Assembly (NCBI GenBank): GCA_934402395.1
Contig: CAKRTQ010000006.1
Coordinates: 16,964 to 80,963 of the forward strand
Source: an uncultured Eubacteriales bacterium
GTDB taxonomy: Bacteria > Bacillota > Clostridia > Oscillospirales > CAG-272
Length of the DNA: 64,000 nt
Reading direction: 5' to 3'
In this document: positions 3,088-62,816 of the stretch, piece by piece
Numbering within the stretch: the stretch's first letter is position 1
Layout of the letters: each line of letters begins with the position of its first letter
Program-made: the position numbers and the translations under genes
Notes under the pieces: model-generated
Told to the model about the DNA's origin: nothing
Seen by the model: only the letters and a program-made list of their open reading frames with translations
Database searches by the model: none

Positions 3088-3181
3088 GGTGCCGTCCGCG
3101 ACAAACCGCCATAAAAGCCCGGGCGACGTTTAAAAGATCAACCGATTTTTCAAACGCCGCCCTCTTTTATGCTTTTTTTAC

Positions 3182-3210
3182 TTGACAAAACGACAAAAAA
3201 GTGATATATT
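3182..3210 (+). promoter_or_regulatory. sigma-A type promoter (TTGACA-17-TATATT, TG-extended)
   Basis: TTGACA at 3182-3187, a 17-nt spacer ending in TGA, and TATATT at 3205-3210. This places the TSS near 3217 and excludes the track GTG start at 3201. Confidence 0.6.
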
Positions 3211-4540: not shown

Positions 4541-4572
4541 GGTGGCTGTCGCGTTATTTCGCGACAGCCACC
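4541..4572. terminator. hairpin terminator between convergent antiporter and recR operon
   Basis: GGTGGCTGTCGCG-ttattt-CGCGACAGCCACC, a 13-bp stem starting 9 nt after the antiporter stop. The U-tract is weak. Confidence 0.5.
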
Positions 4573-6154: not shown

Positions 6155-7798
6155 TCAGCCCGCACCGCCGTCGGCAAGAGAGCTGAGTTCGCTGTCAAGC
6201 AGTGCAGCCGCATCCGGGTCATCGGATGCCGGAAGCACCTCGACCTTCACCGAATTCGGAACGATACGCCGCTCAAGCACAGCCGATGCCGCTGCAGCGA
6301 TCGTGCCGAGGCTTTTATCGCGTGACAGCAGGTTTTTGCTGAATTCTGTCTCGCAGCAGATCACTATCCCGCCGTTGTCGCCTTCGTATGCACGGCACTT
6401 CCGAACAAACCCGCCGAGTCCACGGTCATTTTCGGCGACCCGCTCGGCTATTTCGGCAAAATTGCGTATCGGCTTGCGCACGGGCGCAGTTTCTTCTTCT
6501 TTTTTCTTTGCTGTGTCAGGCACCGCCGGTTCTTTTTGCGGCTCGGGATATACGACCATCTGCGGCGGTGCCGCAGGTGCGCTTCCCAACGTGACCTCGG
6601 GGTCGGCAGCAGGGCGCGATTCATCAAACGACGGCAGTGTGACCGCCACGCCGCCCGCCAGTGCGCCCTCAAGTGCTGCAATACGCGAGAGCAACGCCTC
6701 CGGGCGCGTATCCAGCCGTTCGTCAGCCATACGCAGAAGAGTCATTTCAGCCACCGAGCGGCGGATCGCTCCTGCGCGCTGCATTGCAAGGTATGCCTCA
6801 TCAAGCAGCCGGCTGTGATACATCAGCGTCTCGCGCGGAAACAACGCGGCATCATGGCGCAGGCTTTCAGCCTCCGCCTCGGTAAGATCAAGATACTTTA
6901 CCGCATCGGCTCCCGTTTTTACAACAAGCATATCACGGTAGTAAGAAATAAGCTCGCCCCAGAAGACCGTTATATCCTTGGCAGATGAATCGGTTTCAAA
7001 AACGATATCGAAAAGTGTTGCAGCATCGCGCGCAGCCAGTGCACGGACGGTGCGCGATACGCTTTCGCGTCCCGTTGACCCTACGGCATCATTGACCACA
7101 GCGGGAGTGATGCGCTCGCGCCCGCCCGCACAAAGCTCAAGCAGACTTATGGCATCTCTCATGCCGCCCTGCGCCAGACGCGCCAATATCAGTGCGGCGT
7201 CACGGTCAAGTTCAATCCCCTCGTGCTCTGCAATATATTCAAGCCGCGCGGCAAGCACGGGGACCGGTATGCGCCTGAAGTCAAACCGCTGACAGCGCGA
7301 AATTATCGTTGCGGGCAGCTTCTGAAGCTCGGTCGTTGCAAGTATGAATATTACGTGCGCCGGCGGCTCCTCAAGCGTTTTCAGAAGTGCGTTGAACGCG
7401 CTCTGCGACAGCATATGGACCTCGTCTATGATGTAAACACGGTAGCGGAGGCTTGACGGAGTGTACACCACCTCGTCAAGTATCGCGCGGATATCGTCTA
7501 CCTTGTTGTTGGACGCGGCGTCCATTTCAAGGATATCGGTCTCGCCGCCCGAGTCCATCATACGGCACGCCGCGCATTTGCCGCATGGGCTGCCGTCCAC
7601 AGGGGACTCACAGTTGACGGCGCGCGCAAGGATCTTTGCCGAGCTCGTCTTTCCGGTCCCGCGCGAGCCGCAGAAAAGATAGGCGTGGCTTATCTGCCCG
7701 TGCGCCGTCTCGTATTTGAGCACGCGCGTTATATGCTCCTGACCGCACACATCATCAAATGTGCGCGGGCGGTATTTACGGTAAAGTGCCTGATGCAT
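6155..7798 (-). CDS. dnaX: DNA polymerase III subunit gamma/tau
   Basis: MHQALYRKYRPRTFDDVCGQEHI..., Walker A GSRGTGKTS, a zinc module (CESPVDGSPCGKCAACR) and SRCQRFDF. Confidence 0.97.
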   Translation of the reverse strand: MHQALYRKYRPRTFDDVCGQEHITRVLKYETAHGQISHAYLFCGSRGTGKTSSAKILARAVNCESPVDGSPCGKCAACRMMDSGGETDILEMDAASNNKVDDIRAILDEVVYTPSSLRYRVYIIDEVHMLSQSAFNALLKTLEEPPAHVIFILATTELQKLPATIISRCQRFDFRRIPVPVLAARLEYIAEHEGIELDRDAALILARLAQGGMRDAISLLELCAGGRERITPAVVNDAVGSTGRESVSRTVRALAARDAATLFDIVFETDSSAKDITVFWGELISYYRDMLVVKTGADAVKYLDLTEAEAESLRHDAALFPRETLMYHSRLLDEAYLAMQRAGAIRRSVAEMTLLRMADERLDTRPEALLSRIAALEGALAGGVAVTLPSFDESRPAADPEVTLGSAPAAPPQMVVYPEPQKEPAVPDTAKKKEEETAPVRKPIRNFAEIAERVAENDRGLGGFVRKCRAYEGDNGGIVICCETEFSKNLLSRDKSLGTIAAAASAVLERRIVPNSVKVEVLPASDDPDAAALLDSELSSLADGGAG

Positions 7799-7845: not shown

Positions 7846-8115
7846 GACCATACACCCCAAAGTCGAACATCGCCGCCGCGCGTTACTCGACATTCATGCT
7901 CAGAGCAGGCTCCCCCGCGGCACATCCGGTATACTGCTTAATGCTGCTTGGTTCCCCACCTGACATGGTTCACAGCTCCGAATTGCGCAGGACCCACTCC
8001 TCAACACACAAACACCGTCTCAGACCGCGTCGGTTCAGCCCTCGTTCGGGGAATGCACCCCCGCTTCAGCGGATTTCGGGTACAGGGCACCGCTAACTCC
8101 CCGGCTGGTATGGCC
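7846..8115 (-). ncRNA. ffs: signal recognition particle RNA, long Bacillus/Clostridium type (~270 nt, with Alu domain)
   Basis: The minus strand reads ...GGGGAGTTAGCGGTGCCCTGTACC... (5' Alu-domain motif) and ...GAACCATGTCAGGTGGGGAACCAAGCAGCATTAAG... (domain IV/helix 8). The 5' GGCCATAC pairs with the 3' GTATGGTC. It occupies the conserved position just upstream of dnaX, as in B. subtilis scr. Confidence 0.85.
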
Positions 8116-8186: not shown

Positions 8187-8245
8187 TAGGTTTTGATCAT
8201 TTTTTTAGATCAGATATGCAGCATCGCTTATTTTGACCTTATCGG

Positions 8246-8274
8246 TTGACAGCCGGGGCTTTATAATGTATAAT
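8246..8274 (+). promoter_or_regulatory. sigma-A type promoter (TTGACA-17-TATAAT)
   Basis: TTGACA at 8246-8251 and TATAAT at 8269-8274. If this promoter is used, the track starts at 8233 and 8266 lie outside the transcript. Confidence 0.5.
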
Positions 8275-8313
8275 TACAACAGAAAAATAAACCCGACGAA
8301 AGGACACATCCTC

Positions 8314-9525
8314 TTGAATTACATATCCGAAACACTGAAAACACCCGTCACCGCATCCTGCGATGTAGCCGTCTGCGGCGGCGGTTTTGCCGGCATTGCG
8401 GCAGCTCTTGCCGCAGCAAGGCGCGGAGCCGATGTCATGCTAATAGAACGCGAATACGCCCTCGGCGGTCTCGGCACACTGGGGCTTGTGACAATATATC
8501 TGCCCATATGCGACGGCACGGGGAATCAGGTCATATTCGGAATAGGCGAAGAGCTTTTACTGCTTTCGATGAAGCACGGATATGAGTGCAAGTATCCCGC
8601 GCCGTGGGTCGAGGGCGGTTCGCATGAGGAAAAAAAGCGCACGCGCTTTCAGGTCGGATACAACGGTCCCCTTTTCATGATGGAAGCCGAGCGGCTTTTG
8701 CGCGATGCGGGGGTGAGGATACTTTACGGCACACAGGTGTGTTCCGTTGCCGCCGATAACGGCAGAATAAACGCGCTCATCATTGAAAACAAGAGCGGAC
8801 GCAGCGCCGTCGGCATCGGACGCGCGGTAGTGGATGCCACCGGCGACGCCGATATCGCCGCGTTTGCGGGCACCGGGACCGCGCTTTATACACGCGGAAA
8901 CACACTGTCGGCATGGTACTATTACTGCAACGAAAAGGAACGCAAACGCTGCATGCTGGGTCCCGCCGAGCTGACAGACGAGCAGATAGCCGCCGGAAAA
9001 ACTCAGAAACCGCCGCTTTCCCCACTCCGTTTCACAGGTATCGACGGGACCGAGATAAGCGAAATGATGCAGCTGTCGCATGATGCGACCTTCCGCGACT
9101 GGCAGAAAAAGCATGAAGCAGACCCGACCTTCATGCCCGACACGATAACGGCAATACCGCAGCTGCGTATGACGCGCCGCATATGCGGACTTGATACGCT
9201 CGACATTTACGCCGACAAAAGATATGAGGACAGCGTGGGACTTATCAGCAACTGGCGCGTCCGCGGTCCCGTGTATGAGGTACCCTTCGGCAGTCTTATC
9301 GCGCGCGGATGCAGCAATCTGCTCGCCGCAGGGCGCAATATCTCGGTAACGGATGCATCGTGGGAGATAACCCGCGTCATTCCCTGCTGCTCTGCATTCG
9401 GCGAGGCAGCCGGCGCAGCCGCCGCGCTGTTTGACGACTTTTCGGCGCCGGACAGAGCAATGACGGAAAAACTCGGAGCATCGCTCCGCGAGGGCGGTGT
9501 AAAACTGCACAAAGACGAAATATAA
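8314..9525 (+). CDS. FAD-dependent oxidoreductase (FAD_oxidored/PF12831-like)
   Basis: Track ORF 8233..9525. Dinucleotide-binding motif DVAVCGGGFAGIAAALAAARRGADVMLIEREYALGG. The start is placed at TTG 8314 (GAAAGGA SD 8 nt upstream, downstream of the promoter). ATG 8266 is the alternative. Confidence 0.75.
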   Translation: MNYISETLKTPVTASCDVAVCGGGFAGIAAALAAARRGADVMLIEREYALGGLGTLGLVTIYLPICDGTGNQVIFGIGEELLLLSMKHGYECKYPAPWVEGGSHEEKKRTRFQVGYNGPLFMMEAERLLRDAGVRILYGTQVCSVAADNGRINALIIENKSGRSAVGIGRAVVDATGDADIAAFAGTGTALYTRGNTLSAWYYYCNEKERKRCMLGPAELTDEQIAAGKTQKPPLSPLRFTGIDGTEISEMMQLSHDATFRDWQKKHEADPTFMPDTITAIPQLRMTRRICGLDTLDIYADKRYEDSVGLISNWRVRGPVYEVPFGSLIARGCSNLLAAGRNISVTDASWEITRVIPCCSAFGEAAGAAAALFDDFSAPDRAMTEKLGASLREGGVKLHKDEI

Positions 9526-9529
9526 AGCC

Positions 9530-9700
9530 GTGGGTGTTAAAAAAACCATTTGAGTTTTTAACACCCACGACGGCTTGTTCCCGGCGGCTGAACACCGCCG
9601 TTTTGCCGTTAAGGAAGCTAAACGCCGAGGCAAAAAACGACCAATGCCGCATTAGAAATGCCTATCCGGATCCGCAGTTTAGCGCAACGGCAACAGCACC
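9530..9700 (+). repeat. composite intergenic repeat element, copy E1 (39-nt palindrome plus conserved 28-nt hairpin core)
   Basis: Contains GTGGGTGTTAAAAAAACCATTTGAGTTTTTAACACCCAC (9530-9568). It then carries CGGCGGCTGAACACCGCCGTTTTGCCGT (9582-9609), which is identical to the complement of 61360-61387. It begins 5 nt after the upstream stop codon. Confidence 0.7.
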
Positions 9701-9720
9701 GAGCCTTTTACGATCCCATT

Positions 9721-11058
9721 TTATTTTCTTTTAGCGGAATACCGCATTATTTCCGCCACGAGTCCGGCACAGGTGCGTCGGTCAAGCTTTGATCTTGCGG
9801 TGCCGCCTACGCCCGCACCGACAAATCCCGCCGCGCGCATCGTACCGTAGCCCGCCGCCGCCCATGCCGGCACGCTGTCGTCGGCACACCAGGCGGCAGT
9901 CGCACCATCGGTCTTTATTTCAAGCAATCCCGCCGTTATGACCGCAGCCTCGGCAACGGTTATAGCCTCATCCGGCAGGAAGCACTGTTTGCCGTCCTTT
10001 ATCCACCCATCGCATACGCCAAGGCGGTACGCAGCGTTTATATACGGTCTTGCCGACGCCGGAATATCCCCGTCATCGGCGAAAACTGTGGCTGAGCACG
10101 CCGGGAGGTCTCTTATCCCCGCAGCCGTCATTGCCATAACAATAAATTCAGAGCGGCTCACCGTTTTTTCGGGGTAAAAATATGTCTTGCTGCCAACCTC
10201 GGTGCCTCCCATTATACCGGCATCGGAAACGCGGATCGCCGCGCTTTCAAACACGCTGCCGCTCATATCGGCAAAGCCCTCTCTTCCTCCCCGGCGGCTC
10301 ACGGTAATGCTGACGGCAGCCGCGTCACCGGCGCGCGCTCCCCACTCGTCGCGCACTGTATAGGAAAAGCTGTCACGCCCCGAAAAACCGTCCTCGGGGA
10401 TGTAAAGGTAGCTTCCCGCCGTACGGTCGGTTATTATTACGCTCCCGTGGCGCGGATACGCAGTCAGGGTAAAGAAAAGGTCGTCGCCGTCCGCATCGTA
10501 TGCGGCAAGCCGCCCGGCTGTCGGCATACCGGAGTATGTCGCACCGGTAAGCGATGCCGCAGTTGCCGTACCGAGCACCGGTGCATTGTTTTTTCCGTCA
10601 ATAAAGTTGACGGTACAGTTATAGCTGTGCGCACCGCCGTTCACGCTGAATGTAAAATCGGTCTTTTTGAGCTCCGCTCCGGCAGGAACGAACGCCATGC
10701 GCGAGATATTGAGGCGTGACACGCTTTGCCCCTCGGCAAGAGCCAGCGAACCTATCTGAAGTCTGCCGTCGGCAGAAGCCGGTATTGAGGTGAGTGTGAT
10801 ATATTCAAGCGCCGACACGCCGGCAGCCGCCTCGAAATCCGCTACCTCAAATATCGCCTCGCCGCCTTTTTTTGCCGCGACCGCCATACGCTCGCCCGCC
10901 GCCACGACAGCAATTCCGGGCGAGAGCATTTTTGCGTTTTCGGATGCGCTTGCCGAAGCCGCCCGTGCAGCCGCCGTTCCCGCCGGCTTGGGCAGGATCG
11001 CCTGCGCCGACAAAAGTGAGATCATAAATGTAAGCAGAAAGGATAATGCTTTTATCAT
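9721..11058 (-). CDS. secreted SLH-domain cell-surface protein with cadherin/Ig-like repeat
   Basis: Signal peptide MIKALSFLLTFMISLLSAQA. A cadherin-like segment (YDADGDDLFFTLTAYPRHGSVIITDRTAGSYLYIPEDGFSGRDSFSYTV). Three C-terminal SLH-like repeats (FADMSGSVFESAAIRVSDAGIMGG...; FADDGDIPASARPYINAAYRLGV...). Confidence 0.75.
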   Translation of the reverse strand: MIKALSFLLTFMISLLSAQAILPKPAGTAAARAASASASENAKMLSPGIAVVAAGERMAVAAKKGGEAIFEVADFEAAAGVSALEYITLTSIPASADGRLQIGSLALAEGQSVSRLNISRMAFVPAGAELKKTDFTFSVNGGAHSYNCTVNFIDGKNNAPVLGTATAASLTGATYSGMPTAGRLAAYDADGDDLFFTLTAYPRHGSVIITDRTAGSYLYIPEDGFSGRDSFSYTVRDEWGARAGDAAAVSITVSRRGGREGFADMSGSVFESAAIRVSDAGIMGGTEVGSKTYFYPEKTVSRSEFIVMAMTAAGIRDLPACSATVFADDGDIPASARPYINAAYRLGVCDGWIKDGKQCFLPDEAITVAEAAVITAGLLEIKTDGATAAWCADDSVPAWAAAGYGTMRAAGFVGAGVGGTARSKLDRRTCAGLVAEIMRYSAKRK

Positions 11059-13335: not shown

Positions 13336-13597
13336 AATATCAGAGAGGAACTGTAATTTTATAACACAAAAGTTTTTGTATGTATCCGGATGCTTTAAAT
13401 GTGTCTTTTTGCGCATATGCAGCTCTGCTTTTTGATGTTGAAGGGAAAAAAATAAAAAAATTTTTCTTTTTTTTTCGTTTTTTTCCCTTCGCCTCTTTTC
13501 TTTTGTGTAAATATATGATATAATTAGATGGATTGGAATCTGAGCGCTCAATACGAGCAATACTATATATAAACTGCATCATACAACCGGGAAAGGC

Positions 13598-14899: not shown

Positions 14900-14919
14900 A
14901 TATATTTCTGTTATATTAC

Positions 14920-15030
14920 GGGCTGCCGGAAATCAAATGCTTTCGGCAGCCCGTAAAAATGGCGGCGCAGTGCCGCCAAAACAAAAATATCGTGGGTGTA
15001 AAAAACTCAAAAGGAGATTTTTACACCCAC
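14920..15030 (-). repeat. degenerate copy of the composite repeat element (palindrome 14992-15030 plus two further hairpins)
   Basis: Contains GTGGGTGTAAAAAACTCAAAAGGAGATTTTTACACCCAC, then (minus orientation) GGCGGCACTGCGCCGCC and GGGCTGCCG...CGGCAGCCC hairpins. It lies between the convergent murA and spoVT genes. Confidence 0.6.
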
Positions 15031-15056: not shown

Positions 15057-15614
15057 TTATGCCTCGAGGTGCTTGCCGAGGAAGCCCGCGGCGGTTTCGA
15101 CGAGCTTTGCCTCGGCACCGTTCGAGGCAAGCGCGCCCTTTCTGCCGTTATCGGAGCCGGCAAGCGACACAACGCATCCGAGTATATCGCCCTCGCTGAT
15201 TATCGGCATGGCACAGCTTATATAATAGGAATTTTCATTTTCAACAGGCGAGATTTTTTCATCGCCTTCGCGCCAGATATAAAGACTGCGCCCCTCAATT
15301 ATTTTTTCGAGCTCACCCGAGAGCTGCTTTTCGGCGTAATCGCGGCGCGGCACGCCGGCAGCCGCGATTACGGCATCGCGGTCGCATATCATGACGTTAA
15401 GCTCGCACGTTTTGTGGAGCGTCTCCGCATACTGCGCGGCAAAGGTATTGAGCTCGCCTATCGGCGAGTATTTTTTGAATATGACTTCTCCGTCTCTGTC
15501 GGTGTAAATCTCAAGTGGATCGCCCTCTCTTATTCGCATGGTCCTTCTGATCTCCTTGGGGATAACGACTCTTCCGAGGTCGTCTATCCTTCTGACGATT
15601 CCCGTTGCCTTCAT
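15057..15614 (-). CDS. spoVT: stage V sporulation protein T (AbrB-family regulator)
   Basis: MKATGIVRRIDDLGRVVIPKEIRRTMRIREGDPLEIYTDRDGEVIFKKYSPIGEL is near-identical to the SpoVT swapped-hairpin N-domain. A GAF-like C-domain follows. Confidence 0.93.
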   Translation of the reverse strand: MKATGIVRRIDDLGRVVIPKEIRRTMRIREGDPLEIYTDRDGEVIFKKYSPIGELNTFAAQYAETLHKTCELNVMICDRDAVIAAAGVPRRDYAEKQLSGELEKIIEGRSLYIWREGDEKISPVENENSYYISCAMPIISEGDILGCVVSLAGSDNGRKGALASNGAEAKLVETAAGFLGKHLEA

Positions 15615-19854: not shown

Positions 19855-19893
19855 GGGGCTGTTAAAAACTCATAATGAGTTTTTAACAGCCCC
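19855..19893. repeat. 39-nt perfect palindrome repeat, copy 3 (probable bidirectional terminator)
   Basis: GGGGCTGTTAAAAACTCA-taa-TGAGTTTTTAACAGCCCC lies between convergent genes ending at 19847 and 19901. Confidence 0.8.
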
Positions 19894-33387: not shown

Positions 33388-33419
33388 AGGTCATGCTGCG
33401 CCGCAGCGCAGCATGACCT
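33388..33419 (-). other. intercistronic 14-bp GC-rich hairpin without U-tract (RNA-stability or partial-termination element)
   Basis: AGGTCATGCTGCGC-cgca-GCGCAGCATGACCT lies between the stop of the 1871-aa gene (33473) and the next glycosyltransferase start (33369). Confidence 0.5.
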
Positions 33420-33472: not shown

Positions 33473-36400
33473 TCATCTTGCCGTAAAGCTGATGCCGTGC
33501 TCGGTCGCAAACTTTTCGGCGTAAGAGCCGGCTGCAACATTCAGGACCAGCTTTGCCGATCCGTTGAAGGCACTGAAATAGATGTTATTCACGCCGGCAG
33601 GGAGATACAGGCTCTCAAGCGCGAAACAGTCGCCGAAGGCGTACGCACCGAGCGAGGTCACTGTTTCGGGAAGCACCACCGATGCAAGCTTCGGAGCATT
33701 GATGAAGGAAAGAACTCCGATGCCGGTAAGCACGCTTCCCTCTTCAAACACTATGCTCTCAAGGTTCTGGCAGTATGCGAACGCATAGTTGCCGACCGAG
33801 GTGATATCCTTACCTATTATGACCTTCTTTATCATGTGGCGGAAGGTTCCCCACGGCTGCTCGGTATAAGCCTTGTAGTTGACCATGGCTCCGCTGCCCA
33901 TGACTCTGAATTCGCCGTTCTCGTAAAGCTCCCATGTGATGCTGTCGCCGCATTCGCCGCTGAGGAAGGGCAGATCGGCAGCCGCACGCACCGTGTGCTT
34001 TATGTTATGGGCAACAGCAAACTGTTCGGAATATGTTCCCGCCGCAACATCAAGCACGACCTTGGTCGAGCCGTTGAAGGCACTGAAGTAAATATTGTTG
34101 ACACGCTGAGGAACATAAAGTGACTCAAGTGCAAAGCAATCGCCGAACGCGTACGCGCCTATGTACATAACGCTTTCGGGAAGCACGACAGATGTGAGCT
34201 TCGGTGCGTTAATGAAGGCAAGTATGCCTATTCCGGTAACCTTGCTGCCCTCAAACACTATCTCGCTGAGGTTCTGGCAGTATGCAAAGGTGTAATTGCC
34301 GACAAATGTAATGTCCTTGCCGATCGTGACCTTCTTGATAAGGTGACGGTAAGCAGCCCACGGCTGTTCGGTGTAAGCCGAATAATTTGTCATGGCGCCG
34401 CTGCCTTCAATTCTTATCTCGCCGTTTTCGTACATTTTCCATACGGCGTTGTCGCCGCAGCTTCCGGATGCAAACGGAATATACTCAAATGCACGGGTGG
34501 TGTGGTTTATTCCGTTTGCGTTTGCAAACTGCTCGGAGTATGTTCCAGCCGCAACATCAAGCACGACCTTGGTCGAGCCGCTGAACGCGGTATGGTAGAT
34601 AAAGCTTACGCCCTGGGGAACATAGAGGTTCTCAAGCGCGAAGCAGTCGCCGAATGCATAAGCATTTATAGATGTTACCGTTTCGGGAAGGACCGCAAAT
34701 TTGAGCTTAGGTGCGTTGATAAAGCCGAGAACGCCCACATTGACAAGTCTGCTTCCCTCTTCAAACACGATGCTCTCAAGGTTCTGGCAGTATGCGAACG
34801 CATAGTTGCCGACCGAGGTGATATCCTTACCGATCAGTACCTTTTTGATAAGGTGACGGTTGATGCCCCACGGCTGCTCGGTATAGGACTTGTAATTCGC
34901 CATAGCACCGCTGCCGCGGACTTCAAGAGTTCCGTCCGAGTAAAGCGCCCATGTCACGGAGTCGGTGCAGTTGCCCGAGTAAAGCGGAGGAACGCTGCCC
35001 TCGCGCAGCTCATAAGCAAGACCGTATTCCTCGGCATATGCCTGAGCTACCGAATATCTTGCAACGAGAAGCTTTACCGATGCGTTGGCTTTGTCGAAGA
35101 TAGCCGCGCCCAGCACGGTAACGCTGTCGGGGATATATACGCTTGCAAGCACATGGTCGTTCACAAACGCCCAGCTCTTGATTGTAGTGAGTCTGCTGCC
35201 CGCCTCAACGTCAAAGTATTCAAGCGCGCCGCACTCATAGAATGCGTATTCGTCAAGCACCTCAACGCTTGCGGGGACAGTAACGCCCTCAAGACGCCAG
35301 CAGTGACCGAACGCGCCCCAGCCTATGCTTGTGAGAGAGGAACCGGGTGCAAACGTTATCTTTTTGAGGTATCCGTTTCTGAAGAATCCAAACTTACCTA
35401 TTCTTGTAATGCCGGAGCCTACTTCAAGCGCGGTGATCGCGCTCATGTCGTTTTTGATTATCCACGCGGGATATGTGCCCTTGGATGAATAATCCTTCAT
35501 TGCGCCCTCGCCGTCGATCTTAAGCGTTCCGTCGGTGAGGAGAACGTATTTGATATTTGTTCCGGAGAATCCGGCATCCGCAACCATGCTGTCGTCGCTC
35601 GATACGAACGCACCCTTCTCATCGAACAGGCAGCTGTAGCCGAGCATATCAACGGTGCCGCTTACGGCAATGCCGTTTTTATCAAAGAAATACGCGTTGG
35701 GATAAATGCATACCTCGCCCGTCTGCATAATGCCGGCGGCAAAGTATCTGTATGCTCCAACAGATTTGTCAAAGTAGAATCCGTCAAGCTTTGCGCGGTT
35801 CGGGCAGACACCGTCATCGCCGAAGTCGTAGTAGTAACCGTCGATGAGCTGAAGTCCGGTCAGCTTTACGCCGTCGCGGTAGTAGGAATCATCCTGCCAG
35901 CCGTCGGCAACGACAACACCGTTTACATAGGTCTTGCCGTCTGTCCACTTGCCGTTAAAGAGGTCGCTGCACACCGAGCATTTGAGCACGCCACCGGCGA
36001 GCTTGTAATCATGCCCCGCAACGGGAACAACGGTGCCCCAGTCTACTACCGAGGAGCAGCCCTCGCAGTATGTTCTTCCCGTATAGCCTGCCTCGCGGCA
36101 GGTCGCGGGCTTGTCGGCAACGGCGGCGGGGGTGTGAATGTGTCCGCCATTCCATGAATTGTAATACTCTTTACCCTCCGCAGTGGAGATCATATCCTTA
36201 GCCATACGATACGACTCTGTGTCCACCTGCGGACCTTCGCCGGAGAATGTTGTTACGGTTCCGTCGGTCCAGCCCACGATACCGCGGTCGATATCCATGC
36301 TGATATCGATCGGCCAGAATTCCTTCATATTCTTGAACTGCGCGTACGTATAGGCGGGCTTTCCTTTTTGCGTTCCGCTCTCATACGTATAGCCCATCTT

Positions 36401-39088
36401 GAGCTCCCATGTGCGTATGGGGAGAGACACCAATGCCGCTTCACCGACATCGGTCACATCGCCCGTACGAACAATGGAAATCGTAGCGATGTTTTCATCG
36501 TCCTGAATGGAATATGTTGCGCTGAAGCCGTTGGCTACTTCCATATGATCAAGCTCCCAGCGGCTCATATTGTTGAGGTCAATGTCAACAAGCACGGAAC
36601 GGACGTTCTCGATACGGGTCGCCACGATATCGGCGTACCATACGGAGCCCAGCTTGATCTTATCAAGCGTCGGATCATGAGCCACGACCTTTACCGTTTC
36701 CATGCCGGAGCCCGCCTGCACGTTGATCGTGCGTATTACGGATGCGTAGTTGCCCTGATTATCGCACACAGAGAACTTTACATGATGTATACCGTCGGCA
36801 AGCGCCACATCGGATACAGTGAAAACGCCATCTTTGAACGTGAATCTTGTCTCTGCACCGTCTATATATGCCTTTGCAGTGGCGGCATCAAGTCCGGTGA
36901 AGTTGTTTTTTGACATATCGTCAGCAACTCTTACCGCAAAGCTGAGTATGTTTTCGTTCACGGTCTGACCGTTCAGCACGGCAGCGTCTGACATACTGCC
37001 GGTAGCATAAGTCACATCCTCAAATTTCGGTGCTTCGCGGTCGTCAACAGCATCCGAGTAATCAACGGTTATATCGTCAACATACATGACATATCTGCCG
37101 TTGTATGACTTGTGCTGATTATAATAATATCCGTAAGAAGCACCGTCACGGTCGGAGATATAAAACTGTACGATATATCCCGCGCTCAGGTACAGTCCCT
37201 TGTACTTGCTGAGATCGATGGAAAGATAATGCCATCCCGGCTCATGGTACTGGTTGACAAAACCCGTAGTGGAAGAGACACCGTCAGCCTTTGTGTCTGT
37301 TATGCTGTCACTGCTCATTACATATTCGCCCGCATCGTTAAGCACAAGCGGGTACACGACATAGCGTATCCATGTGGAAACATCCTCATCGGATATGTAT
37401 ATCCACATACCGAGCTTTGTGGCATTCTCGAATGTTTTGACATCGCCCTTATATTGAAGTGCGGTCATCATGTATCCCGACTCCCAGGAGTTGCCGTAGT
37501 TTATATCCAGCGCCATAGCTCCGTTGCCGCTGTGCACTTTTCCGGTCGCCGGAGTCACAGGGTAGACCTTGCCCTCCGGAAGCACATAGTTGTATGTACC
37601 ATAGCCGAGATCGAACATGCTTGTATCGCCGTCCTCAAAGTCAAAGACGACCTCGGAGCCCTTTCCGAGTCTTATGATGGCAGTAGCGGCGATCTCGGTA
37701 CCGTTTATCACGGCAGTGATTCTGCTTTCAGCCACGCTGCCGTCGGCAGCCGTAAAATCGAAACCGCTCAATAAGCCGATGCCATTGTTTTCAAGCGTAA
37801 AAGTAATATCGCTTGCGCGGAATTTGACCTCGTTGAGACCGTATGTCGCCGTCATGCTCAGGGCTACCGTTGCGCCGAACGGAACGGTTATTTCCGAGCT
37901 GTTGAATAAAAGTCTTTCGGGTACAACAGCATGGATCGTTGCCGAGCCGACTTCCTTTCCGTTGTAAACGGCAGTCAATGTAACATCTCCCACCGCATCG
38001 GCAGTCAGAAAACCGTTTTCAAATTTGCCGTTTTTGACGCTGTATGTAATGTCGGCGGGAATTTCCGCCGCATTGCCCGTAGTGCTTACTCCGGCAACGT
38101 TTACGGCGACGGGAGTGCCCGCGGTCGCATATTCGGTTTCAACATTGAATGCAACACGGTCAAATGTTTTTGACGCGACCGCAGTTGAAACTACGATAAG
38201 TCCGTTGGAAATGCTGCGTTCGGAACCATCGGACGGTCTGTTGACGATAACAAAGTTATCCTCTCCTTCGGGCTTGCTGCCGTATGTCATCGAACCGCCG
38301 CCGTCAAGGTGGCCTGCCCATTTGCAGCCGAGGTCAAGCATGACCTGCGCCTGCTCCATGAGTGTGAGACCTATCGAGTAAGGGGTCTGGTTGCCGTCTG
38401 CCGAAAGCAGAATGACCTTATTGTCGGCAGTTACGCCTATCGTCTGGCGCGGATATTTGGATGTATCCTTCTGCTCGTTTTCCGAAAGCACTATCTTGCC
38501 GTCGAACACAAGCATTTTGTAAATGCCGATGGCTTCCCTGATATTGCCCTTGTCCGATTCGTAATCGGCTGCATTGCCTATTTTGGCGGTGCCATCGTTC
38601 AGAATGGCAAAATACGCCGATCTCTCGCTGCCGGTAACGTCATTGCCGTTCATAACAAACACGCCCGTGGGCTTGCCTGTTGTCATGTTGTAGTAGGAAG
38701 CGTTGATGCCTACGACCACCGTTCCGTTGTAGTAGGGATCGCCCGCAGCCGACTTTCTGTCGAATGCAGCCACCTGCTCTGTAAGCTTGGACATTCCGTA
38801 AACGGTATTGTCCATATTCTGATATGAGGTGAACAGCTTTACCGTATCGACCGACATATCAACTGTTGCGGCGAACATTTTTACCTGATTGCCGTTCTTG
38901 TCGTAAACGGTATAGATATCCTGTGTCACGCCGCTTGCAAGCGTTGATTTTTTGTCCGCTACAAGTGAAAGCTGTGAGTTCTGGAACTGCGCTTCAGCTG
39001 CCGCGGCAAAAGCCGGAACCATGCCGATAAGCATGACGAAGCACACGATCCCAGCCAAAGCCTTGACCAAAGGGGTGTTGCGTTTCAT
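33473..39088 (-). CDS. giant secreted multidomain surface protein: phosphodiester glycosidase (NAGPA/DUF2233) domain, Ig-like domains, CBM-like and cohesin-like modules, cell-wall-binding repeats, four BspA-type leucine-rich-repeat modules
   Basis: 1871 aa. Signal peptide MKRNTPLVKALAGIVCFVMLIGMVPAFAAAAEA. NAGPA motif ...PRQTIGVTADNKVILLSADGNQTPYSIGLTLMEQAQVMLDLGCKWAGHLDGGGSMTY. Big_2-like segments. GWQDDSYYRDGVKLTGLQLIDGYYYDFGDDG cell-wall-binding repeats. C-terminal LRR modules (GNYAFAYCQNLESIVFEEGS...AYAFGDCFALE). Confidence 0.85.
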   Translation of the reverse strand: MKRNTPLVKALAGIVCFVMLIGMVPAFAAAAEAQFQNSQLSLVADKKSTLASGVTQDIYTVYDKNGNQVKMFAATVDMSVDTVKLFTSYQNMDNTVYGMSKLTEQVAAFDRKSAAGDPYYNGTVVVGINASYYNMTTGKPTGVFVMNGNDVTGSERSAYFAILNDGTAKIGNAADYESDKGNIREAIGIYKMLVFDGKIVLSENEQKDTSKYPRQTIGVTADNKVILLSADGNQTPYSIGLTLMEQAQVMLDLGCKWAGHLDGGGSMTYGSKPEGEDNFVIVNRPSDGSERSISNGLIVVSTAVASKTFDRVAFNVETEYATAGTPVAVNVAGVSTTGNAAEIPADITYSVKNGKFENGFLTADAVGDVTLTAVYNGKEVGSATIHAVVPERLLFNSSEITVPFGATVALSMTATYGLNEVKFRASDITFTLENNGIGLLSGFDFTAADGSVAESRITAVINGTEIAATAIIRLGKGSEVVFDFEDGDTSMFDLGYGTYNYVLPEGKVYPVTPATGKVHSGNGAMALDINYGNSWESGYMMTALQYKGDVKTFENATKLGMWIYISDEDVSTWIRYVVYPLVLNDAGEYVMSSDSITDTKADGVSSTTGFVNQYHEPGWHYLSIDLSKYKGLYLSAGYIVQFYISDRDGASYGYYYNQHKSYNGRYVMYVDDITVDYSDAVDDREAPKFEDVTYATGSMSDAAVLNGQTVNENILSFAVRVADDMSKNNFTGLDAATAKAYIDGAETRFTFKDGVFTVSDVALADGIHHVKFSVCDNQGNYASVIRTINVQAGSGMETVKVVAHDPTLDKIKLGSVWYADIVATRIENVRSVLVDIDLNNMSRWELDHMEVANGFSATYSIQDDENIATISIVRTGDVTDVGEAALVSLPIRTWELKMGYTYESGTQKGKPAYTYAQFKNMKEFWPIDISMDIDRGIVGWTDGTVTTFSGEGPQVDTESYRMAKDMISTAEGKEYYNSWNGGHIHTPAAVADKPATCREAGYTGRTYCEGCSSVVDWGTVVPVAGHDYKLAGGVLKCSVCSDLFNGKWTDGKTYVNGVVVADGWQDDSYYRDGVKLTGLQLIDGYYYDFGDDGVCPNRAKLDGFYFDKSVGAYRYFAAGIMQTGEVCIYPNAYFFDKNGIAVSGTVDMLGYSCLFDEKGAFVSSDDSMVADAGFSGTNIKYVLLTDGTLKIDGEGAMKDYSSKGTYPAWIIKNDMSAITALEVGSGITRIGKFGFFRNGYLKKITFAPGSSLTSIGWGAFGHCWRLEGVTVPASVEVLDEYAFYECGALEYFDVEAGSRLTTIKSWAFVNDHVLASVYIPDSVTVLGAAIFDKANASVKLLVARYSVAQAYAEEYGLAYELREGSVPPLYSGNCTDSVTWALYSDGTLEVRGSGAMANYKSYTEQPWGINRHLIKKVLIGKDITSVGNYAFAYCQNLESIVFEEGSRLVNVGVLGFINAPKLKFAVLPETVTSINAYAFGDCFALENLYVPQGVSFIYHTAFSGSTKVVLDVAAGTYSEQFANANGINHTTRAFEYIPFASGSCGDNAVWKMYENGEIRIEGSGAMTNYSAYTEQPWAAYRHLIKKVTIGKDITFVGNYTFAYCQNLSEIVFEGSKVTGIGILAFINAPKLTSVVLPESVMYIGAYAFGDCFALESLYVPQRVNNIYFSAFNGSTKVVLDVAAGTYSEQFAVAHNIKHTVRAAADLPFLSGECGDSITWELYENGEFRVMGSGAMVNYKAYTEQPWGTFRHMIKKVIIGKDITSVGNYAFAYCQNLESIVFEEGSVLTGIGVLSFINAPKLASVVLPETVTSLGAYAFGDCFALESLYLPAGVNNIYFSAFNGSAKLVLNVAAGSYAEKFATEHGISFTAR
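33476..34990 (-). repeat. three tandem ~0.5 kb in-frame repeats encoding near-identical LRR modules
   Basis: For example, 33734-33812 recurs at 34751-34829 with one mismatch (offset 1017 nt, in frame). A more diverged middle copy lies near 34240-34330. Confidence 0.8.
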
Positions 39089-43018: not shown

Positions 43019-43058
43019 CAGACAGTGCTGCCGCGCAATTGCGCGGCAGCACTGTCTG
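43019..43058. terminator. 18-bp perfect hairpin, bidirectional terminator
   Basis: CAGACAGTGCTGCCGCGC-aatt-GCGCGGCAGCACTGTCTG lies between araC-like (stop 43018) and the convergent operon (stop 43064). On the minus strand it is followed by TCAGTTTTTC. Confidence 0.7.
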
Positions 43059-50364: not shown

Positions 50365-50405
50365 GGGGATGTTAAAAACCCACGAATGAGTTTTTTTACA
50401 TCCCC
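50365..50405. repeat. degenerate copy of the palindromic repeat (copy 4)
   Basis: GGGGATGTTAAAAACCCACGAATGAGTTTTTTTACATCCCC, 33 nt downstream of the glcK stop. Confidence 0.6.
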
Positions 50406-50437: not shown

Positions 50438-51394
50438 TCAGTGCAGCATGGCTGCACCGACTATCCCCGCGTCATTGCCGAGCTTCGCTATGCGGATCTC
50501 GGTCTCGGATACTATACCGCCGCCGTACTGCTCCTTGCGGACCATCGGGATCAGCGGCTCAAGCAGAAAATCGCCCTCGTTTGAAATACCGCCGCCGAGA
50601 GAGATGACCTCCGGCTGGAATATGTTCACTATGTTCACAAGCCCGCAGGCAAGATAGTAAACATACATTTTAAATACCTCTGCAGCCGCCTCGTCGCCCG
50701 CACGCATTGCATCGCAGGCTGTGCGCCCGGATATTTTGCCGCGCTCGCGCGCTATATCCTCGATAAGTGTCTTGCGTCCCTTGAGACGGCACTCTTCAAG
50801 CTTTTCACGGGTCATATTGATAAGCGCGGTCGCTGAGCTGTATGCCTCCCAACAACCGAGTCTGCCGCAGGAGCACTGTCTGCCGCCGGCAGCTATCACG
50901 ATATGTCCCAGCTCTGCGCCGGCATTGTTGAAGCCGGTCAGTATCTTATTGTCGATTATAACGCCGCCGCCGACACCGGTCCCGAGCGTTATCATCACAG
51001 AATCGGATGTTCCCTTAGCCGCGCCTGCGACCGCCTCGCCCCATGCCGCAGCGTTTGCATCGTTGGCAATATGTACATCGACCTTGCCGAGACGCTCACG
51101 GAGCAGCGCGGCAAGCGGAAACTGTCTGAAGGGCAGATTGTTGGCATACTCGATGCAGCCGTTGCGGTCATTGGCGATGCCCGGAGACGCTACGCCCACC
51201 GAGGCTATATCAGACATCGGAACGCCATGCTCCTCCGCAACGCGGCGGCAAAGCTCCGCCATATCGTCAACAATAAGCTCCGGGGCGCGTTTGGGAAGCG
51301 TCGGGGTGCTCTGCTTCGTGATGATATTCATTTTTTCGTCAACAAGTCCTACGGCAATGTTGGTTCCGCCGAGGTCGATTCCGATCCTGTACAT
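50438..51394 (-). CDS. glcK: ROK-family glucokinase
   Basis: MYRIGIDLGGTNIAVGLVDE, the ROK signature, and the zinc motif GHIVIAAGGRQCSCGRLGCWEAY. Confidence 0.9.
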   Translation of the reverse strand: MYRIGIDLGGTNIAVGLVDEKMNIITKQSTPTLPKRAPELIVDDMAELCRRVAEEHGVPMSDIASVGVASPGIANDRNGCIEYANNLPFRQFPLAALLRERLGKVDVHIANDANAAAWGEAVAGAAKGTSDSVMITLGTGVGGGVIIDNKILTGFNNAGAELGHIVIAAGGRQCSCGRLGCWEAYSSATALINMTREKLEECRLKGRKTLIEDIARERGKISGRTACDAMRAGDEAAAEVFKMYVYYLACGLVNIVNIFQPEVISLGGGISNEGDFLLEPLIPMVRKEQYGGGIVSETEIRIAKLGNDAGIVGAAMLH

Positions 51395-51565: not shown

Positions 51566-51601
51566 ATAAAAATGAACTGCCGCGCCAATGCGCGGCAGTT
51601 C
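51566..51601 (-). terminator. rho-independent terminator
   Basis: GAACTGCCGCGC-caat-GCGCGGCAGTTC (51574-51601) is followed on the minus strand by ATTTTTAT, 12 nt after the stop at 51613. Confidence 0.7.
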
Positions 51602-53498: not shown

Positions 53499-54464
53499 TT
53501 ATTTCTCGCGTACAGCCTTGACTGTCACAGCGGTGCCGAGCATGGCAACAATAGCTATAACAAGAAGGATAACGGCGGTGTTATCGCCGGTAACGGGAGA
53601 GGTCGGCTCGGTCGTGGGAGCGTCCGTTGTGGGAGCATCGGTCACAGGAGCATCGGTGGTGGGAGTCTCGGGCTGAGTGGCGGGAGCTTCGGTCTCGGTT
53701 GACAGAGCAGTGAGATCGCCCTTGAACACCTGGAAGTCCTTGGCGATAACGCCTGAATTCTTGTTGTAAACGTAGAATGCAATACCGAACTTATTGGATT
53801 TTGCAAACTCTTCGGCAGTACCGATGTGCTTGTCAAACAGCACGTTGTTGAAGTATACGGCAAAATCGTAGCCGTCAACAACGATCATGAACTCTGCAAA
53901 ACCGTCGGCATTGGCTTCCTGAGCAGCCTTGAAATCATACTTTGCATATGCAGAACCGTCGCAAAGGAGCGAACCGTCATCTTTTTTTACGGAACCGGTA
54001 GCTTTTCCGCCGCCCTTGCCGAGGCTCATATCGTTGTTATCCTGTCTGCCGCCGTAAAAGCCGTAGAGATTTTCGTATGTAGCACCGTCATTGGGGTAGT
54101 TGATGTACACACCGGCATTGGTTCCGAATATCTGGACTTTGCCCTTGAGCGTGTAGCTCTTGCCCTCGCCGATCTCGAGTCCGGCGATTTCGCCGCCGTA
54201 CCAGAATCTGCCCTTGGCAGCGGATTCGTGAGTGAGCGTGAGTGTCTTACCGCCATCGGATGTTTCAACAGTGCATTCCTTTGCCTTGCTGATGACATCG
54301 GGAATGTACACGCCTTCTTTGGCGCCGAACACGACATCGTAAAGCAGCTCGCCTGCTTTGGCATCGTCGTAGCTCTTTGCAAGCTCGTTTGCGGCGGAAA
54401 CGGACATGCAGAGCATTGCACCGATCATCACAGCGCAGAGGAGTACCGAAAGAATCTTCTTCAT
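53499..54464 (-). CDS. cell-wall-sorted surface protein, single-module paralog of 51613-53328, SPXTG sorting signal
   Basis: Track ORF 53499..54545, refined to ATG 54464 (MKKILSVLLCAVMIGAMLCMSVSAANE). C-terminus TEPTSPVTGDNTAVILLVIAIVAMLGTAVTVKAVREK. Confidence 0.8.
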   Translation of the reverse strand: MKKILSVLLCAVMIGAMLCMSVSAANELAKSYDDAKAGELLYDVVFGAKEGVYIPDVISKAKECTVETSDGGKTLTLTHESAAKGRFWYGGEIAGLEIGEGKSYTLKGKVQIFGTNAGVYINYPNDGATYENLYGFYGGRQDNNDMSLGKGGGKATGSVKKDDGSLLCDGSAYAKYDFKAAQEANADGFAEFMIVVDGYDFAVYFNNVLFDKHIGTAEEFAKSNKFGIAFYVYNKNSGVIAKDFQVFKGDLTALSTETEAPATQPETPTTDAPVTDAPTTDAPTTEPTSPVTGDNTAVILLVIAIVAMLGTAVTVKAVREK

Positions 54465-54512
54465 TGTTGTTTCACCTTTCTTTTTCCGGCATACCGCCGG
54501 ATCATTGAGTTC

Positions 54513-54541
54513 ATTATACCACAGTGCCGAATTGAAATCAA
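54513..54541 (-). promoter_or_regulatory. promoter (TTGATT-17-TGgTATAAT) of surface-protein gene 53499-54464
   Basis: Read on the minus strand: -10 at 54518-54513 and -35 at 54541-54536. The architecture is duplicated from the paralog upstream region. Confidence 0.55.
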
Positions 54542-54603
54542 GCATTTTATAAATATTCGCAACAAAAAATATGATTTTGGAAAAACAATATCACACGCGG
54601 CGC

Positions 54604-57007: not shown

Positions 57008-57038
57008 GGGGTTGTCGCGCATAATGCGCGGCAACCCC
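57008..57038 (-). terminator. hairpin downstream of groEL (no clear U-tract)
   Basis: GGGGTTGTCGCGC-ataat-GCGCGGCAACCCC, 20 nt after the groEL stop. Confidence 0.45.
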
Positions 57039-60683: not shown

Positions 60684-60712
60684 TTGACATCTCCTCCGGC
60701 ACATGCTATAAT
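60684..60712 (+). promoter_or_regulatory. sigma-A promoter (TTGACA-17-TGcTATAAT) inside the 3' end of / just after the symporter gene
   Basis: TTGACA at 60684-60689 and TATAAT at 60707-60712, with TG at 60704-60705. Confidence 0.55.
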
Positions 60713-60719
60713 GGAAGAA

Positions 60720-61220
60720 ATGAAAGGAGCAAGCAAAAAGAAGCAACTGAGGCTGTTTATCATCATCTCAGCGGCAATAGTCACTGTCATTGCAGCGGCG
60801 ATCATCGCATCGGAGCTTACACTCGGACACATCGTTTCGGCAAATGTTGTATGCACCGGTTCGAGTTGCTCAACGCCTGTCTTTGACGGCGTTGCGCTGA
60901 AAGCCGATCTCAACGATTTTTCCTTTTCGGTAAGAAACGCGGAAAGCCTTGCACAGGTAAAAAAGCTCGCGGACCGCGCCAAAAGCATTGACAGGTCTGA
61001 AAAACTCAACCCCTTTTCCGGGACCATAGTGTCGCCGACATGGACCATACAGATCGAATATCATTATTCATCCGGACGTTCAAAAACGGTAAAGTACCGT
61101 GGTCACGCCGATCTTGAGATATCAGATATAATACTTGATCTCAACGACCGCGAACTGTTTCTCACCGACGTACCGCGTGATATGATCGCTCCACCCGGAA
61201 CGACATCCGTTGAAGAATAA
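60720..61220 (+). CDS. small membrane-anchored protein of unknown function (possibly leaderless mRNA)
   Basis: The track ORF 60420..61220 overlaps the symporter gene in its 5' part. The plausible product starts at MKGASKKKQLRLFIIISAAIVTVIAAAIIAS, with one TM helix and then a ~130-aa soluble domain. ATG 60711 lies inside the -10 box, and ATG 60720 coincides with the expected TSS. Confidence 0.5.
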   Translation: MKGASKKKQLRLFIIISAAIVTVIAAAIIASELTLGHIVSANVVCTGSSCSTPVFDGVALKADLNDFSFSVRNAESLAQVKKLADRAKSIDRSEKLNPFSGTIVSPTWTIQIEYHYSSGRSKTVKYRGHADLEISDIILDLNDRELFLTDVPRDMIAPPGTTSVEE

Positions 61221-61239: not shown

Positions 61240-61441
61240 GGGGCTGTTAAATAACTCGATGTTTTTAACAGCCCCTCAAAATGCCGGTCGGGGTTCCGGC
61301 ATTTTTGATGCGATCTTGGTCGGTTTTGCCCGCAGTGTTCTTATCTTCTCGGTTTTTATACGGCAAAACGGCGGTGTTCAGCCGCCGAGACCAAGACGAC
61401 GGGGGTGTTAAAAAACTCAAATTGAGTTTTTTAACACCCCC
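61240..61441 (-). repeat. MITE-like composite repeat element, copy E2, bounded by two copies of the palindromic repeat (copies 6 and 7)
   Basis: 61401-61441 is GGGGGTGTTAAAAAACTCAAATTGAGTTTTTTAACACCCCC. 61240-61275 is GGGGCTGTTAAATAACTCGATGTTTTTAACAGCCCC. The internal 28-nt core at 61360-61387 is the exact complement of 9582-9609. The element begins 6 nt after the hisS stop. Confidence 0.7.
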
Positions 61442-62771: not shown

Positions 62772-62816
62772 CAAAAAAAGCTCGGGGCTGACGCGCTAAT
62801 GCGCGTCAGCCCCGAG
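62772..62816 (-). terminator. rho-independent terminator after rplQ
   Basis: The minus strand reads CTCGGGGCTGACGCGC-atta-GCGCGTCAGCCCCGAG followed by CTTTTTTTGTC. Confidence 0.85.

Follow-up and report, generated by a model that had tools for sequence, protein, structure and literature searches.

What are the short palindromes that recur just beyond the stop codons of a Clostridia chromosome, and how did they come to be there? The question is raised by a 64-kb stretch of contig CAKRTQ010000006.1 from an uncultured Eubacteriales bacterium (hereafter the window), in which a first-pass annotation had picked out seven intergenic copies of a palindrome of about 39 nt and proposed a genome-specific, REP-like element doubling as a bidirectional terminator. 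Our analysis indicates that these palindromes probably belong to an undescribed family of small, non-autonomous interspersed repeats of a REP/SPRITE/BOX-like kind, carried by a clade of uncultured gut and rumen Clostridia (Oscillospirales) and terminator-like at the gene ends where they lie. The family has a two-level architecture, a palindrome module and a composite unit, which is new to description, while its general kind is familiar.

Palindrome module and composite unit in the window

The seven annotated palindromes were all found again. The half-site GGGGSTGTTAAAAA, searched with at most 2 mismatches, gave 13 matches in the window where 0.71 were expected; none of 100 shuffled sequences reached 13, and 12 of the 13 matches fall inside the seven palindromes. 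A covariance model, R1, was trained solely on the copies of other genomes (89 sequences, 14 basal pairs, apex left free) and scanned over the window with filters off. It returned exactly the seven copies (E 3e-11 to 3e-3) plus one degenerate eighth at 3122-3161, which makes 8 copies in 64 kb, all of them extragenic. Single copies fold at -15 to -29 kcal/mol, with z values of -4 to -9 against shuffled controls. The copies and the composite structures to which some of them belong are listed here; a strand is given where one could be assigned, since each palindrome is self-symmetric and the orientation of a single one is therefore undefined.

3122-3161: eighth copy, degenerate, GGGCGACGTTTAAAAGATCAACCGATTTTTCAAACGCCGCCC; R1 22.8 bits, E 0.007; fold -21.1 kcal/mol, z -6.35, on the minus strand
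9530-9568, minus strand: copy 1, long (right-type) palindrome with a GTGG...CCAC foot; R1 41.5 bits
9569-9662, minus strand: decayed core of the copy-1 unit, seen by blastn and by an H3 module match at 9582-9607
14956-14991, plus strand: H3-like hairpin module GGCGGCGCAGTGCCGCC joined to copy 2, seen by blastn
14992-15030: copy 2, long-type palindrome with a GTGG...CCAC foot; R1 28.8 bits; fold -21.3 kcal/mol
19855-19893: copy 3, solitary perfect 39-nt palindrome; R1 48.2 bits; fold -28.4 kcal/mol, z -9.2; terminator-like on the minus strand
50365-50405: copy 4, solitary long-type palindrome, imperfect, with GCAAAACGTCG before it; R1 45.4 bits
53441-53475, minus strand: copy 5, solitary short (left-type) palindrome; R1 29.6 bits; terminator-like, 15 pairs
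61240-61441, plus strand: intact composite unit of about 205 bp, with copies 6 and 7 as its ends
61240-61275: left palindrome of the unit, PL (copy 6)
61276-61308: hairpin H2
61311-61330: left half of the long-range stem S3
61331-61361: variable loop of the unit
61362-61369 and 61389-61398: right half of S3
61370-61386: hairpin H3
61401-61441: right palindrome of the unit, PR (copy 7)

The description of these sequences as perfect palindromes holds for copies 3 and 7 only, the remaining copies having 1-3 imperfections. Their placement just 3' of stop codons was borne out, each of the seven copies lying 4-32 nt from one. The distance is 4 nt for copy 1 (FAD-oxidoreductase gene, 8233-9525), 26 nt for copy 2 (spoVT, 15057-15614, minus strand), 7 nt for copy 3, 32 nt for copy 4 (ROK-kinase gene, 50438-51394, minus strand), 23 nt for copy 5 (gene 53499-54545), 19 nt for copy 6 and 5 nt for copy 7. 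Copy 3, whose 20-nt arms are 100% complementary, fills a 53-nt gap between convergent genes and has a second stop codon 7 nt away on its other side. The degenerate eighth copy stands between a gene end and a strong promoter-like site (3182-3210). The statement that no copy is followed by a canonical U-tract is contradicted on the minus strand, where TTTTTGAATCTTTTTTG comes next after copy 5 and GTTTTG after copy 3; both copies are among the top terminator-like sites of a generic scan of the window on that strand. After each of copies 1, 2, 6 and 7 comes another hairpin, this one canonical and with a T-run. The GVKKLK-type open reading frames (ORFs) of this region are translations of the palindromic repeats and should not be taken as genes.

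The palindromes are real, but 39 nt is only a part of the element. A single 205-bp unit begins with copy 6 and closes with copy 7; parts of such a unit are carried by copies 1 and 2, and copies 3, 4 and 5 are solitary. In BLAST comparisons the segment 61236-61441 recurs as one unit of about 205 bp at non-syntenic sites in at least 18 other loci, with 70-86% identity. The boundaries of the unit are sharp, from the GGGG of the left palindrome to the CCCC of the right one, with otherwise unrelated sequence on either side.

The basic module is a hairpin of 34-42 nt with a conserved 14-bp base, GGGG-N-TGTTAAAAA / TTTTTAACA-N-CCCC, and an apex that is free in sequence yet self-complementary. Module lengths are bimodal (34-37 and 39-42 nt) and the centre varies from 6 to 13 nt. 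Two such modules enclose a structured core of 126 bp made of two terminator-like hairpins and a long-range stem. PL is a 34-37-nt palindrome with the loop CTCGATG; the loop CATCGAG of copy 5 accordingly gives that copy its minus orientation. H2 follows as AAAAATGCCGG...CCGGCATTTTT, then the left half of S3, GATCTTGGTCGTTTTTGCC, and some 25 nt of variable loop. H3, in the form GGCAAAAC-GGCGG...CCGCC-GAGACCAAG, splits the right half of S3, and PR closes the unit as a 39-42-nt palindrome with extra CTCA/TGAG pairs. The whole folds at -104 kcal/mol (z -10.9) into four local hairpins and one long-range stem, not into one long hairpin. The outer arms, GGGGNTGTTAAAAA... and ...TTTTTAACANCCCC, serve as terminal inverted repeats, whether of a solo palindrome or of a 205-bp unit. 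In most copies the first bases are a GGGG that is paired to CCCC; a GTGG start is seen in 2 of the 8 window copies only, and it is paired there. The tetranucleotide CGTC/CGAC is present 5' of the right palindrome, only inside units. At one locus of a metagenome-assembled genome (MAG) labelled Lachnospiraceae (SIG295; L075, ~7162-7255), the palindrome forms the apex of a perfect 94-nt palindrome, AAACGTTATGTCGCTAACCGAGCAAAT-P-ATTTGCTCGGTTAGCGACATAACGTTT, which may represent a different, larger element built on the same module.

In the window, the intact unit is enclosed by two convergent genes: an unannotated ORF, which stops at 61220, and hisS, which stops at 61447. Copy 1 is the outer end of a second, reversed unit that has decayed. 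Its flank is the reverse complement of the copy 7 flank, and blastn aligns 9532-9662 with 61298-61439 in reverse (78% over 142 nt). Its core retains the H3 hairpin cggcggctgaacaccgccg with TTTT (~9582-9600), the halves of the long-range stem and the variable loop; the unit lacks its left palindrome. This decayed unit occupies the convergent gap 9526-9720, up to the gene that ends at 9721. Copy 2 ends a half unit, being preceded by an H3-like module (14956-15028 versus 61365-61439, 74.7% in blastn). Read on the minus strand, this module is a hairpin with ATTTTT behind it and makes a canonical terminator downstream of spoVT (scan match 14978-14960). A further 15-bp hairpin, TTACGGGCTGCCGG...CCGGCAGCCCGTAA, unrelated to either hairpin family, was noted at 14916-14956 between the aroA stop and the copy-2 module; together with that module and the palindrome it makes three consecutive hairpins in one intergenic gap.

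Recurrence, copying and maintenance of pairing

The family is not specific to the genome in which it was noticed. A strict full-palindrome pattern with 26 specified bases, for which ~0.002 chance matches are expected in 596 Gb, matched at least 112 stretches in at least 33 different species-representative assemblies, which contradicts the proposed genome specificity. The matching assemblies are labelled Clostridiales, Eubacteriales, Acutalibacteraceae, Anaerotruncus, Oscillospiraceae and Firmicutes CAG:272, and their samples come from human gut, rumen and horse. The same pattern had no match in 2.9 million viral contigs, and the 205-bp unit had none in plasmid and phage collections. A looser census was then taken over the window and 112 loci, with ~8 kb around each match (828 kb in all). 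It counted ~150 palindromes (152 at first, 151 once an overlap was merged), among them 22 pairs at a fixed spacing of ~126 bp and ~85 copies without a recognisable neighbouring module. The earlier remark that the sequence is not a named family held up: Rfam had no relevant match at gathering or permissive thresholds, the best permissive matches of the unit being to microRNA-precursor models at 14-21 bits against thresholds of 60-200 bits, and nothing was found in the literature on this sequence or on comparable Clostridia elements.

In about 20 of the matching stretches the palindrome lies within ~150 nt of a true contig end, often halving a composite unit (L035, L042, L045, L038, L056, L074, L033, L034, L044, L020, L041, L039, L040, L067, L001, L005, L009, L015, L060 and L076). 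This placement is expected of a repeat that breaks assemblies, and the assemblies of these MAGs appear to break frequently at the palindromic repeat.

Units and modules have been copied to new sites within a genome without target-site duplication. Units cluster by genome: nearest neighbours belong to the same genome, and mean identity is 0.76 within genomes versus 0.66 between them. The units of L019 and L044 are 98% identical and those of L104 and L069 91% identical, at different sites with unrelated flanks. No direct repeats indicative of target-site duplication were found beside 19 aligned units, beside the 98% and 91% pairs or at a polymorphic site. That site, with 95% identical flanks, carries a full unit in L083 and a single long palindrome in L096, and the flanks align right up to the outer feet. 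In the simplest reading, the unit collapsed by recombination between its two ends, as solitary long terminal repeats arise, although the reverse direction is possible. The same pattern of unit and solo palindrome is seen at another shared site (L070 versus L081). Palindromes can also persist in place: they are kept at orthologous gene ends whose adjacent gene is only 66-68% identical, in L011/L023 and in L090 with window copy 4 (66%).

Base pairing is maintained in both levels of the architecture. In an alignment of 22 full units with 70 pairs, 89.6% of cells are paired. Changes on both sides of a pair were observed in 37 of the 70 pairs, compared with 13.8 ± 2.2 in shuffles (none of 500 reached 37) and 9-21 in slid controls. 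Among the 89 distinct palindromes, 98.2% of basal cells are paired, with 55 double-sided changes where 7.9 were expected. Position 5 of the palindrome illustrates this: it is CG in 54 sequences, GC in 17, AU in 8 and UA in 8, with 2 unpaired intermediates. That an uncontacted position 5 and a centre of variable length both stay self-complementary means that it is the pairing within a strand that has been preserved. At the orthologous hisS end, where the flanks of the window and L066 are 91% identical, symmetric changes are present in both arms.

The two levels differ in their use of wobble pairs. In the core helices G·T exceeds A·C (19 vs 7 in H2, 39 vs 10 in S3a, 12 vs 5 in H3), which would make the PL-to-PR strand the folding one. 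This asymmetry is a suggestive sign of the folding strand, the copies being related and two of the S3 wobbles being consensus features. In the palindromes, G·U occurs in 6 of 1246 cells. Such a scarcity of wobble and mismatch intermediates fits a need for both strands to fold, as in bidirectional use; it also fits a hairpin needed at the DNA level, and arms that are corrected by a templated process. Template switching at quasi-palindromes is an established mutational process of the arm-correcting kind.

Position at gene ends and competing explanations

The REP-type behaviour ascribed to the palindromes, extragenic and at 3' ends, was confirmed across the census, with an enrichment between convergent genes. 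The sites comprise 42 convergent, 36 tandem and 11 divergent gaps, mostly with the palindrome 5-30 nt from a stop codon. Measured against background gaps from the same sequences, palindromes occupy 26% of convergent, 10% of tandem and 6% of divergent gaps (chi-square p = 7e-6). Of 21 full units, 11 take up a whole convergent gap, and each of the two stop codons then has a palindrome 5-20 nt away. Unit orientation relative to the neighbouring genes showed no clear bias in a comparison of low power.

Solitary copies usually have an A-run before and a T-run after them (~4 of 8 positions versus 1.9 expected), and their stems are A/T-rich in the middle. A bidirectional intrinsic terminator has the same succession of A-run, hairpin and T-run. 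The L016 palindrome, flanked by A5 and T8, comes directly after a transfer RNA (tRNA) gene. Judged from these flanks and from the appearance of copies 3 and 5 in the terminator scan, the suggestion that the palindromes act as bidirectional terminators is plausible.

Together, these results are best accommodated, in our opinion, by a family of non-autonomous interspersed repeats. In this scheme a copying enzyme would act on the folded single strand, and full units would at times collapse to solitary palindromes through recombination of their two ends, as the polymorphic site suggests. Copies would persist where they do least harm, a few bases past stop codons and especially between convergent genes, and there the A-run/hairpin/T-run layout could provide Rho-independent-type terminators or 3'-end hairpins in both directions.

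Several observations weigh against this interpretation. Among the syntenic loci no clean empty site was found, the flank of L013/L080 not being alignable; with the lack of target-site duplication, this makes gene conversion rather than transposition possible. A tblastn search with E. coli RayT over the window and the 112 loci gave a best E of 1.3, a scan of their 3,917 ORFs for the HUH...Y motif found none, and clustering of the ORFs near palindromes in the 828 kb brought out ABC transporters and paralogues of that sort but no nuclease or transposase family that was enriched. The conservation of the arms is partly an ascertainment effect of the search pattern, and the gene context was called crudely, by longest ORF. 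Where genes are in tandem, the T-run downstream is not stronger than the A-run upstream (3.92 vs 4.19, p = 0.49), so that the flanks would belong to the element or its target and not be tuned to the incoming gene. Finally, in the JAGAFQ genome H2 keeps its pairing with the A-run and T-run swapped and the U-tract lost, which indicates that conservation of the core concerns its structure and not a terminator function.

A specific version of the interspersed-repeat reading is that these are true REP/REPIN sequences, whose hairpins are cut and rejoined by a single-copy Y1 (HUH) transposase (RAYT) encoded elsewhere in the genome. Extragenic high-copy hairpins without target duplication, REPIN-like sequence populations within genomes and a G·T over A·C asymmetry that implies one folding strand are all as it would have them. 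So are the GTGG...CCAC "double foot" of two window copies, known from some RAYT subclasses (PMC6006769), the CGTC/CGAC tetranucleotide 5' of many right-type palindromes and the occurrence of group 1 RAYTs in Clostridia (PMC5581495). However, most copies begin with a paired GGGG and not with an unpaired GT[AG]G tag, and the link to RAYT/IS200 transposases raised in the first-pass annotation gained no support in the 828 kb: neither a RayT homologue nor a Y1-like (HUH...Y) ORF was found in the window or the 112 loci. Genes between palindrome pairs 1-2.3 kb apart are ordinary, and no gene in the 828 kb is recurrently flanked by palindromes. Unit orientation shows no bias relative to replication as inferred from GC skew (13/22) or to gene strand (14/22), both proxies of low power, and two units 5 kb apart in L080 are in opposite orientations. 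Moreover, the known CGTC REPs have stems of 8-9 bp and none is reported from Firmicutes. We consider this version unlikely. Still less credit is given to the view that the unit or the palindrome is a multi-copy structured RNA, a protein-binding or processing site in 3' untranslated regions or a small RNA, kept by selection on the RNA. It would explain the strong compensatory covariation in all helices, the tolerance of G·U in H2, S3 and H3 on the PL-to-PR strand only, the very stable fold and the retention of palindromes beside genes of only 66-68% identity. It does not agree with the near absence of G·U from the palindromes, with the equally good folding of both strands, with units that are not co-oriented with the neighbouring gene and have no apparent conserved promoter, or with the lack of a matching Rfam family; near-identical copies at unrelated loci and the clustering by genome fit copying better.

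Equally improbable, in our estimation, are ordinary intrinsic terminators made alike by shared ancestry or convergence, without any copying. The position immediately 3' of stops, the A-run/GC-clamped stem/T-run layout and the existence of a second set of gene-end hairpins that shares the GGGGNTG...CANCCCC clamp would all follow. What this view leaves aside is that 14-nt arms, and indeed a whole 205-bp sequence with its spacers, are shared by unrelated loci in at least 33 species, that 98% identical units stand at two sites in one genome, and that the T-runs are not oriented to incoming transcription; stems of 15-19 bp also exceed the ~10 bp of terminators in streptococci, a different Firmicute group (PMC3049150). 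Were the palindromes instead duplex-DNA sites for a symmetric dimer (a nucleoid protein, a roadblock repressor or the core site of a tyrosine recombinase), their two-fold symmetry, conserved half-sites TGTTAAAAA and almost purely Watson-Crick arms would be natural. A hairpin requires the variable position 5 and the apex to stay self-complementary and a duplex-binding dimer does not; with a centre that varies in length and a location at 3' ends, not promoters, this makes such sites very improbable. DNA uptake sequences arranged as inverted pairs seem the most far-fetched of the explanations considered. Inverted uptake-sequence pairs do form 3'-end terminators in Neisseria and Haemophilus, which speaks for the idea, but lone half-sites are rare here (38 loose matches against ~150 palindromes, and essentially none in the window) and the repeated unit is the whole palindrome, even the 205-bp composite.

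Some other candidates were rejected. In integron attC sites R'' (RYYYAAC) lies 5' and R' (GTTRRRY) 3', the opposite polarity to the order GTTAAAAA...TTTTTAAC of the palindromes, whose neighbours are housekeeping genes in both orientations. For parS, Xer and other recombinase core sites, the variable centre length and the self-complementarity of uncontacted positions do not fit. Tn3-type inverted repeats have only the GGGG start in common with the palindromes, and there is no 5-bp duplication.

A bolder form of the interspersed-repeat interpretation can be put forward tentatively, as a possibility that we rate as rather doubtful. The family would be a Gram-positive counterpart of the REPIN-RAYT system that lacks the REP tag: a long-lived population of hairpin modules and 205-nt composite units, passed on vertically throughout a family-rank clade of gut Clostridia and supplying much of its hosts' stock of transcription terminators. 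Templating of one arm on the other, not ordinary selection, would keep the arms perfectly complementary, and an unrecognised enzyme would be behind the spread. Interspersed palindromic repeats are well studied in Proteobacteria and pneumococci, and almost nothing was found for the uncultured Oscillospirales, a dominant group in gut and rumen metagenomes. A gene-end repeat that is easily searched in dozens of species would explain some of the contig breaks in MAGs and would improve operon and terminator annotation in these species. It also offers a tractable case for the spread of terminator-like hairpins and the upkeep of perfect palindromes.

Chromosomal setting and known repeat systems

The window has 52.9% G+C and carries aroA, spoVT, hisS, rpoA, a ROK kinase, a response regulator and a large-type signal recognition particle (SRP) RNA. 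These are ordinary chromosomal genes and place the palindromes in a Clostridia chromosome, not in a mobile island. The SRP RNA (7848-8113, minus strand, 176.6 bits), the sole Rfam family above threshold in the window, is of the large, Bacillus type, consistent with a Firmicute host.

A second set of long and perfect hairpins (12-18 bp) was observed at gene 3' ends:

4541-4572: second-set hairpin
33388-33419: second-set hairpin, coming after the ORF of 1871 aa described below
43019-43058: second-set hairpin
51574-51601: second-set hairpin
57008-57038: second-set hairpin with the basal clamp of the main palindrome family
62781-62816: second-set hairpin with the basal clamp of the main palindrome family

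Most of them have a CGCGC-N4-GCGCG apex and several are followed by T-runs; the clamp shared by those at 57008 and 62781 is GGGG-N-TG...CA-N-CCCC. A strict pattern for this set matched four times in the window and twice in 764 kb from other species, one of these two being the L066 orthologue, and from so few outside matches the set looks largely specific to the window's own lineage.

Three further features were noted. The ORF at 33473-39088 (minus strand, 1871 aa) combines BspA-type leucine-rich repeats with a phosphodiester glycosidase (NAGPA) domain and is probably a surface protein. In the 40 kb scanned for promoters, five perfect 12/12 matches to TTGACA-17-TATAAT were detected (749-777, 8246-8274, 51490-51462, 60684-60712 and 62762-62734), and promoter-like sites numbered 27 and 31 where ~16 were expected. 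From this excess and the five perfect matches, the organism seems to use near-consensus promoters of sigma-70 type. At 13445-13476, in the gap before aroA, an A/T-only quasi-palindrome (GAAAAAAATAAAAAAATTTTTCTTTTTTTTTC) has a weak R1 score through its A-run and T-run only.

Compared with known systems, the family most resembles REP, BIME and REPIN sequences in being made of extragenic, high-copy hairpins of 20-40 nt between convergent and co-directional genes (PMC3733652, PMC6006769, PMC3116915), for which terminator or mRNA-stabiliser roles have also been proposed (PMC3733652, PMC6006769, PMC3116915). It shares with them mosaic units that include other motifs, the lack of target duplication and populations that evolve within genomes. 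Unlike REPs, most of the present copies have no unpaired GT[AG]G tag, their stems are perfect where those of REPs are imperfect or bulged, no RAYT was found near them, and their host is a Gram-positive clade outside the REP surveys. REPs have been called species-specific (PMC6006769) and the present sequence is common to dozens of species; the surveys list no Firmicute families, and group 1 RAYTs are reported from Clostridia (PMC5581495). With most copies lacking the tag and the RAYT search negative, we have not filed the family as REP.

The palindrome-associated elements of the IS200/IS605 group (PATEs) likewise carry same-strand hairpins at both ends, lack a target duplication and imply that the single strand folds. 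Here, in contrast, the hairpins are terminal and perfect, whereas those of PATEs are sub-terminal and imperfect; the searched loci yielded neither TnpA nor TnpB, the units show no strand bias by the low-power proxies, and the left flank is merely A-rich, without a defined target of 4-5 nt. With MITEs, including the Correia elements of Neisseria, the family has in common a size below 300 bp, a non-coding and intergenic nature, mutually inverted ends and long hairpins in transcripts. It differs from them in the lack of target-site duplication and in that each end is a complete palindrome. A related autonomous insertion sequence, as expected for a MITE, was not seen in the searched loci, where palindrome pairs 1-2.3 kb apart enclose ordinary genes.

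Among Gram-positives, the closest described analogues come from pneumococci. In modularity it is BOX of S. pneumoniae, with its boxA, boxB and boxC, that comes nearest (PMC3049150): it too is a highly structured single strand, intergenic, co-transcribed with its neighbours and without a dedicated transposase (PMC3049150), although BOX has terminal inverted repeats and target duplications and its modules are not perfect palindromes. The closest Gram-positive analogue, by its published description, is the pneumococcal SPRITE (PMC3049150). SPRITE is AT-rich, numbers ~30 copies and occurs only in S. pneumoniae and S. mitis, whereas the present family is GC-clamped, occurs in many species and forms a 205-bp composite with a palindrome at each end. 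The resemblance lies in a Firmicute host, a duplex of ~18 bp that goes well beyond normal terminator stems, AAAA/TTTT termini and a T-rich tail; like the family described here, SPRITE has no established target duplication and no known transposase, is MITE-like and may terminate transcription.

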